DNA from: Escherichia coli
Lineage (GTDB): Bacteria; Pseudomonadota; Gammaproteobacteria; Enterobacterales; Enterobacteriaceae
NCBI RefSeq assembly: GCF_024700885.2
Contig: NZ_CP117016.1
Length of the DNA stretch: 64,000 nt
Reading direction: 5' to 3' (one strand)
Shown: one piece after another, positions 54,892-55,070 of the stretch
Layout: every line of letters begins with the position of its first letter
Numbering within the stretch: the first letter of the stretch is position 1
The notes under the pieces: model-generated
Seen by the model: the letters and a program-made list of their open reading frames with translations, nothing else
Database searches by the model: none
What the model was told of the DNA's origin: nothing
Position numbers and translations under genes: made by a program

Positions 54892-54895
54892 TATC

Positions 54896-54985
54896 ATGAA
54901 ACGGACAATGCTCTATCTTTCTCTGCTGGCTGTCAGCTGTAGCGTCAGTGCCGCAAAATACCCTGTTCTGACAGAAAGTAGTTGA
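54896..54985 (+). pseudogene. yfeW: Possible remnant of yfeW (penicillin-binding protein 4B): signal-peptide-only ORF of 29 codons
   Basis: ATG at 54896 encodes MKRTMLYLSLLAVSCSVSAAKYPVLTESS then a stop; sits where K-12 carries yfeW between murP and yfeX (from memory). Confidence 0.35.
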
Positions 54986-55013
54986 TCAAGTGTATGCGGC
55001 GTTAAAGCAGTAA

Positions 55014-55049
55014 TAAAAAGGCCAGTCAGTTGTGTTACTGGCTGGCCTT
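55014..55049. terminator. Putative terminator downstream of yfeX
   Basis: Imperfect stem ggccagtcagt / actggctggcc flanked by an A-run and a short T-run. Confidence 0.45.
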
Positions 55050-55070
55050 TAATCAATGAATCAGAAACGC

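Follow-up and report, generated by a model that had tools for sequence, protein, structure and literature searches.

A probable deletion scar of pbp4b (yfeW) between murP and yfeX in Escherichia coli

What occupies the short interval between murP and yfeX in those Escherichia coli genomes that carry no complete gene there, and how did it come about? The case considered here lies in a window of 64,000 nucleotides, which is the whole stretch of DNA analysed, from contig NZ_CP117016.1 of RefSeq assembly GCF_024700885.2. A sequence-only reading had taken the interval for a deletion scar at the site of yfeW, the gene for penicillin-binding protein PBP4B, and had put its length at 180 bp. The gap is indeed short but it measures 179 bp (54892–55070), extending from the murP stop codon TGA (54889–54891) to the stop codon (55071–55073) of yfeX on the minus strand. 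Comparison with intact alleles leads us to conclude, with a probability of about 0.96, that the gap constitutes a pseudogene scar, from which a single illegitimate-recombination event would have removed 1,183 bp inside pbp4b (yfeW).

Anatomy of the murP-yfeX gap

In the K-12-like strain 3A a 434-aa pbp4b (yfeW) gene of 1,305 bp, annotated as "penicillin binding protein PBP4B", lies exactly between murP and yfeX, in agreement with the sequence-only reading, in which K-12 was given a yfeW of about 430 aa at this site. Intact pbp4b genes of 433 or 434 aa occupy the same place in seven other strains. The scar has the same flanking genes, in the same orientation, as strain 3A and these seven other intact loci, and its position is that of the third gene of a murQ-murP-pbp4b operon which is convergent with yfeX. 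According to a passage in PMC5061867, with Jaeger & Mayer 2008 as its source, murQ, murP and yfeW form a single MurR-controlled operon, and a terminator follows yfeW. Features of the locus are summarised in Table 1, where several of the gene assignments draw on the annotation of strain 1190, a canine isolate whose sequence matches that of the window at 100% across the 1,201 bp that span the junction.

Table 1. Features of the murQ-yfeX region, in window coordinates
Feature	Position	Strand	Basis or detail
murQ (MurNAc-6-P etherase), first gene of the operon	52567–53463	+	Intact 298-aa ORF; length and position match annotated murQ in strains 3A and 1190
murP (PTS MurNAc transporter IIBC), upstream neighbour	53467–54891	+	Intact 474-aa ORF; annotated murP in strain 1190
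pbp4b 5' remnant (gene nt 1–83/84)	54896–54979	+	Collinear with strain 3A locus 3497–3579
Remnant ORF: PBP4B signal peptide and first residues, frameshift stop	54896–54985	+	29 codons plus TGA
Deletion junction with 2-nt microhomology GT common to both breakpoints	54978–54979	+	Comparison with intact alleles
pbp4b 3' remnant (last 36 nt, including TAA at 55011–55013)	54978–55013	+	Native frame VDQVYAALKQ-stop, now out of frame
Deletion-linked SNP (A)	54989	+	A in 8/8 deleted, G in 8/8 intact alleles examined
Native hairpin, probable bidirectional terminator for murQP(-pbp4b) and yfeX	55017–55050		Arms 55020–55030 and 55037–55047, extended by AAA/TTT
yfeX (porphyrinogen peroxidase), convergent downstream neighbour	55071–55970	-	Intact; annotated in strain 1190 at the equivalent position (locus 3672–4571)

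Three pieces make up the gap. The first 83–84 nt of pbp4b run straight into the final 36 nt of that gene, and a native hairpin follows. The 5' remnant reaches 54978 when compared with strain 3A and 54979 when compared with the common intact allele, which reads AGT/TCG at the break (marked here by a slash), and it matches the K-12-type gene start at 80 of 83 nt. From 54978 onwards gapped BLAST aligns the window to positions 4763–4836 of the strain 3A locus, a segment that runs from the end of pbp4b through its stop codon to the hairpin, with 91% identity over 74 nt. The pbp4b portion of this right-side alignment corresponds to the last 36–39 nt of the gene and, over strain 3A locus positions 4763–4801, it shows 91% identity with a 3-nt indel.

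Relative to intact alleles, the missing 1,183 bp extend over gene nt 84–1266, or codons 28–422 of 433/434, and gene nt 83/84 is joined to nt 1267. The scar proposed earlier is thereby borne out, both ends of the gene being present, and the suggestion that the first codons of a secreted protein are fused to sequence from further downstream also holds, with the partner being the 3' end of pbp4b itself, out of frame. Since 1,183 is not divisible by three, the reading frame shifts at the junction and a TGA follows two codons beyond it (54983–54985). Intact alleles read GAAAGT/TCGCC at the left breakpoint and GGTTGG/GTAGTTG at the right, and the corresponding sequence of the window is GAAAGTAGTTG. 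At the left breakpoint most intact alleles carry AGT/TCG and K-12 carries AGC/TCG, and the GT microhomology is seen against the AGT alleles. No longer direct repeat was found at the breakpoints in the intact alleles compared.

Two forms of the PBP4B C-terminus occur in E. coli, one ending in ALKQK (434 aa; K-12, O157, 504237 and DETEC-C31) and the other in ALKQ (433 aa; 266917_2, MN06021 and PS_131_S11), and they differ by a 3-nt AAG indel (window 55008–55013; strain 3A locus 4793–4801). Judged by its retained tail, the deletion is one that arose on the 433-aa allele type.

The remnant reading frame and the lost enzyme

The remnant ORF starts with an ATG at 54896, four nucleotides after the murP stop, and encodes MKRTMLYLSLLAVSCSVSAAKYPVLTESS (54896–54982) before the frameshift stop; it forms the tail of a longer mechanical ORF at 54809–54985. 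The sequence-only reading had described this 29-codon frame as a signal peptide followed by a stop and had proposed aligning it to YfeW. In that alignment the peptide is identical to the K-12 PBP4B N-terminus at 29 of 29 residues and the breakpoint falls in codon 28. Moreover, the peptide matches positions 1–28 of the NCBIfam PBP4B equivalog NF002968 (E = 4.7e-6) and, on this homology, the frame is not a chance ORF. Residues 28–29 (Ser-Ser) come from AGT AGT spanning the junction, where the intact gene has AGC or AGT followed by TCG; since the junction falls in codon 28, their match to PBP4B is a coincidence. What is left of the product is the start codon, the signal peptide and nine or ten residues of the mature protein; by eye, the pattern of a Sec signal peptide fits, with MKR as n-region, TMLYLSLLAV as h-region and a cleavage site at SCSVSA/AKY.

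Whereas intact PBP4B scores 890 bits against NF002968, with AmpH as its next-best NCBIfam match, the remnant scores 25.7 bits and falls below the curated cut-off of 385 bits. The intact protein carries one Pfam Beta-lactamase domain (PF00144, aa 44–412) which lies wholly inside the deleted codons, and the motifs S102-N-T-K (SxxK), Y203-S-D (Yx[ND]) and H371-T-G ([KH][TS]G) of the K-12 protein are all located within the deletion. Thus, the window shares with K-12 pbp4b/yfeW the locus, the start codon and first 27 codons, the last 11 codons and stop, and the downstream hairpin, but it is without codons 28–422, including the SxxK serine S102, HTG 371 and the PF00144 domain, and its frame is broken. 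Because the whole beta-lactamase-fold DD-peptidase domain and its motifs have been deleted, and the frame is broken, the scar is a pseudogene remnant from which no enzyme can be produced.

PBP4B is reported to be non-essential (Vega & Ayala 2006, as cited in passages of PMC5061867 and PMC4916385), and the part of PMC4916385 dealing with it gives an output of about 20–30 molecules per generation and counts the protein as one of eight redundant class C PBPs. AmpH, AmpC, PBP4, PBP5, PBP6a/b and PBP7 are treated there as low-molecular-weight class C PBPs with redundant DD-carboxy/endopeptidase roles. Unlike PBP4B, they are all encoded elsewhere, outside the MurNAc catabolic operon, and their redundancy provides a plausible reason why the loss of PBP4B would be tolerated. 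Neutral loss is likewise plausible because the protein is non-essential, redundant and of low abundance. In such cells transcription of the operon from the murQ promoter would still pass the remnant and reach the hairpin, leaving murQ and murP unaffected, and the 29-aa product, consisting of little beyond a signal peptide, may be synthesised in very small amounts and broken down again, serving no function.

One might instead regard the remnant ORF as a retained functional element. It could encode a small peptide for export, or serve as a leader or in translational coupling and so tune murP expression or the spacing to the terminator. Its ATG, with the four-nucleotide spacing from the murP stop, and its open frame are retained in 8/8 deleted alleles, and the signal peptide looks intact, as would be expected for such a role. 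However, the sequence is simply the unchanged 5' end of pbp4b, and it differs more in amino acids among deleted than among intact alleles, with six distinct non-synonymous changes in 7 distinct deleted alleles (V13I, Y22F, L25Q, T26A, T26I and S28G) versus two in 8 intact alleles (P23T and C15R). This difference suggests relaxed constraint on the remnant, in a sample too small for statistics. A permissive Rfam scan of 54700–55300 yielded no match to a known RNA element in the scar at E <= 1, the intact protein is itself made at the very low output given above, and PGAP lists the ORF among pseudogene fragments, giving it the label "hypothetical protein; incomplete; missing C-terminus" in every deleted genome inspected (strain 1190 and six more). 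Taken together, these points render a retained function very unlikely, and we continue to view the ORF as the truncated beginning of a pseudogene.

Distribution and origin of the deleted allele

The deletion is common in the species. A 1,201-bp query across the junction was matched contiguously in 1,274 of 5,426 complete E. coli genomes and, in those without a contiguous match, it splits at the junction, with the sampled rows annotated as pbp4b. With a 101-nt junction-centred query the deleted form was found in 1,272 of the 5,426 genomes (about 23%), the intact form accounting for about 76%. Carriers of the deletion include UTI89 and B95.deltaA, a derivative of E. coli B.

RefSeq/PGAP annotates pseudogene fragments that represent the same remnant with the same junction (CNQ48_RS26180 in 1190, IFE20_RS24620 in UTI89 and LJ838_RS11950 in B95.deltaA), although the parent gene is left unnamed and the retained 3' end is unmentioned. 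Since RefSeq flags the pseudogene in many genomes, and a pan-genome comparison would show the polymorphism, the deletion is to be rated as already known, an ordinary presence/absence polymorphism and pseudogene remnant. Our literature search found no paper describing this natural deletion, the hits being concerned with PBP4B function and the operon. For annotators, the "hypothetical protein, incomplete" fragment that follows murP in about 1,270 complete genomes can be read as a two-ended pbp4b remnant. UTI89 and the E. coli B lineage are naturally without PBP4B, and this absence is relevant when laboratory strains are set against clinical ones for their PBP complements, DD-carboxypeptidase redundancy or MurNAc-operon expression.

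Sixteen alleles were compared base by base, eight of them deleted (the window, 1190, GN25, KKo003, B95.deltaA, UTI89, ERP001 and LS4) and eight intact. All 8 deleted alleles exhibit the same junction and the 433-type tail, and they are further distinguished by the linked SNP listed in Table 1. When the intact right breakpoint was edited to carry the A, the resulting 81-mer yielded no perfect match to an intact allele in the 5,426 genomes, the best match being 80/81, in a search that is blind to intact alleles in which the A is accompanied by another difference. In neighbour-joining trees of murP and yfeX, the deleted alleles fall into at least three divergent clades where they are mixed with intact alleles. 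The first of these is B2-like and includes UTI89, KKo003, ERP001 and LS4, the second is the clade of the window and also contains the intact 266917_2, PS_131_S11 and MN06021, and the third comprises E. coli B, among K-12- and O157-type flanks. Phylogroup was assigned by strain name, with UTI89 taken to belong to B2, and the B lineage was placed in the same way.

Such a distribution could arise if a hotspot had repeatedly and independently given rise to the same deletion, which would place it in E. coli B, B2-like and other backgrounds with no recombination between them. What speaks for this is that the flanking haplotypes of the deleted alleles form at least three divergent clades. Against this, the breakpoints share 2 nt of microhomology and have no longer flanking repeats, so that nothing directs identical breaks, and all the deleted alleles share the 433-type tail and the A at 54989, the latter seen only with deleted alleles among those compared. 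Given so short a microhomology and a linked SNP common to all, identical deletions are unlikely to have recurred, and we rate this course of events as highly improbable. The reverse direction, in which the short form would be ancestral and pbp4b would have been inserted in K-12-type lineages, can draw on the presence/absence polymorphism itself and nothing more. The anatomy of the scar practically disproves it, since both ends of the gene are present and joined out of frame, a configuration that an insertion cannot yield; moreover, the intact alleles are in the majority. The survival of both gene ends out of frame thus points to loss as the direction of change.

The simplest reading, based on eight deleted alleles read base by base and on coverage counts for the rest, is that of one old deletion which was later moved between backgrounds, or maintained, by homologous recombination. 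Accordingly phrased as a sequence of events, the deletion would have happened once, long ago, and homologous recombination would since have carried the allele between lineages or kept it polymorphic. The same junction in divergent flanking haplotypes would then illustrate on a small scale how a loss-of-function allele can travel or persist through recombination inside one species. We attach little credence to the idea that loss of PBP4B, the product of the third gene of the MurNAc-recycling operon, is advantageous and that this advantage carried one deletion allele across phylogroups by recombination, to about a quarter of the sequenced E. coli, or alternatively that a murP-coupled 29-codon ORF has a role of its own. 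If an adaptive explanation were true, the benefit might lie in altered peptidoglycan trimming or recycling, or in beta-lactam or host responses, in ExPEC-type lineages.

The hairpin and the polymorphic spacers

Intact alleles have this hairpin at the equivalent position behind the pbp4b stop; in the scar it lies just 34 nt from the stop of the remnant ORF. Folding predicts a 14-bp stem, with -24.5 kcal/mol on the plus strand (z = -6.1) and -20.2 kcal/mol on the minus strand (z = -4.5). It is followed on the minus strand by UUUUUAUUA, and on the plus strand only by UUUAAU, a short U-run; because of the UUUUUAUUA on the minus strand, the hairpin is a plausible intrinsic terminator for yfeX. A simple consensus pattern scan of 54700–55300 called no promoter or terminator on either strand, and it missed the hairpin because there is no long run of T on the plus strand and one A-C mismatch in the stem on the minus strand. 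The hairpin is therefore a putative terminator.

Two hairpin haplotypes occur, differing at window positions 55032–55033 and 55041, one with the loop TTGTGT and an arm ending in CTGGCTGG, the other with the loop TAATGT and an arm ending in CTGCCTGG; in several strains with the TAATGT loop, the plus-strand G-U pair of the stem is changed to a C mismatch. E. coli B shows a haplotype switch between the remnant stop codon and the hairpin loop. There, the deletion-type tail is combined with the second (TAATGT) hairpin type, which confines a recombination breakpoint to some 20 nt.

The window and most strains carry the single hairpin and no REP sequence. In K-12-type strains the spacer between pbp4b and yfeX is longer by about 184 bp (strain 3A locus 4805–5020, and also ET650; the window equivalent is 55017–55050). 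The additional sequence contains two REP-like palindromes (GCCTGATGCGCTACGCTTATCAGGCCTAC and GTAGGCCGGATAAGGCGTTCACGCCGCATCCGGC), with directly repeated copies of the ~32-nt terminator hairpin on either side. This looks like a BIME insertion into or beside the terminator hairpin with target duplication.

Other spacers of the region are also polymorphic. At the murP-pbp4b boundary, from stop codon to ATG (window 54892–54895), the window, K-12, O157 and E. coli B read TGAtatcATG, the B2-like alleles and DETEC-C31 read TGAttATG, and 266917_2 and MN06021 read TGAtaatATG, differences which may alter translational coupling. Further downstream, 60 nt separate yfeY from yfeZ in the window and other strains, and E. 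coli B95.deltaA carries about 146 bp extra at this site (locus 4212–4419; window equivalent 56642–56701).
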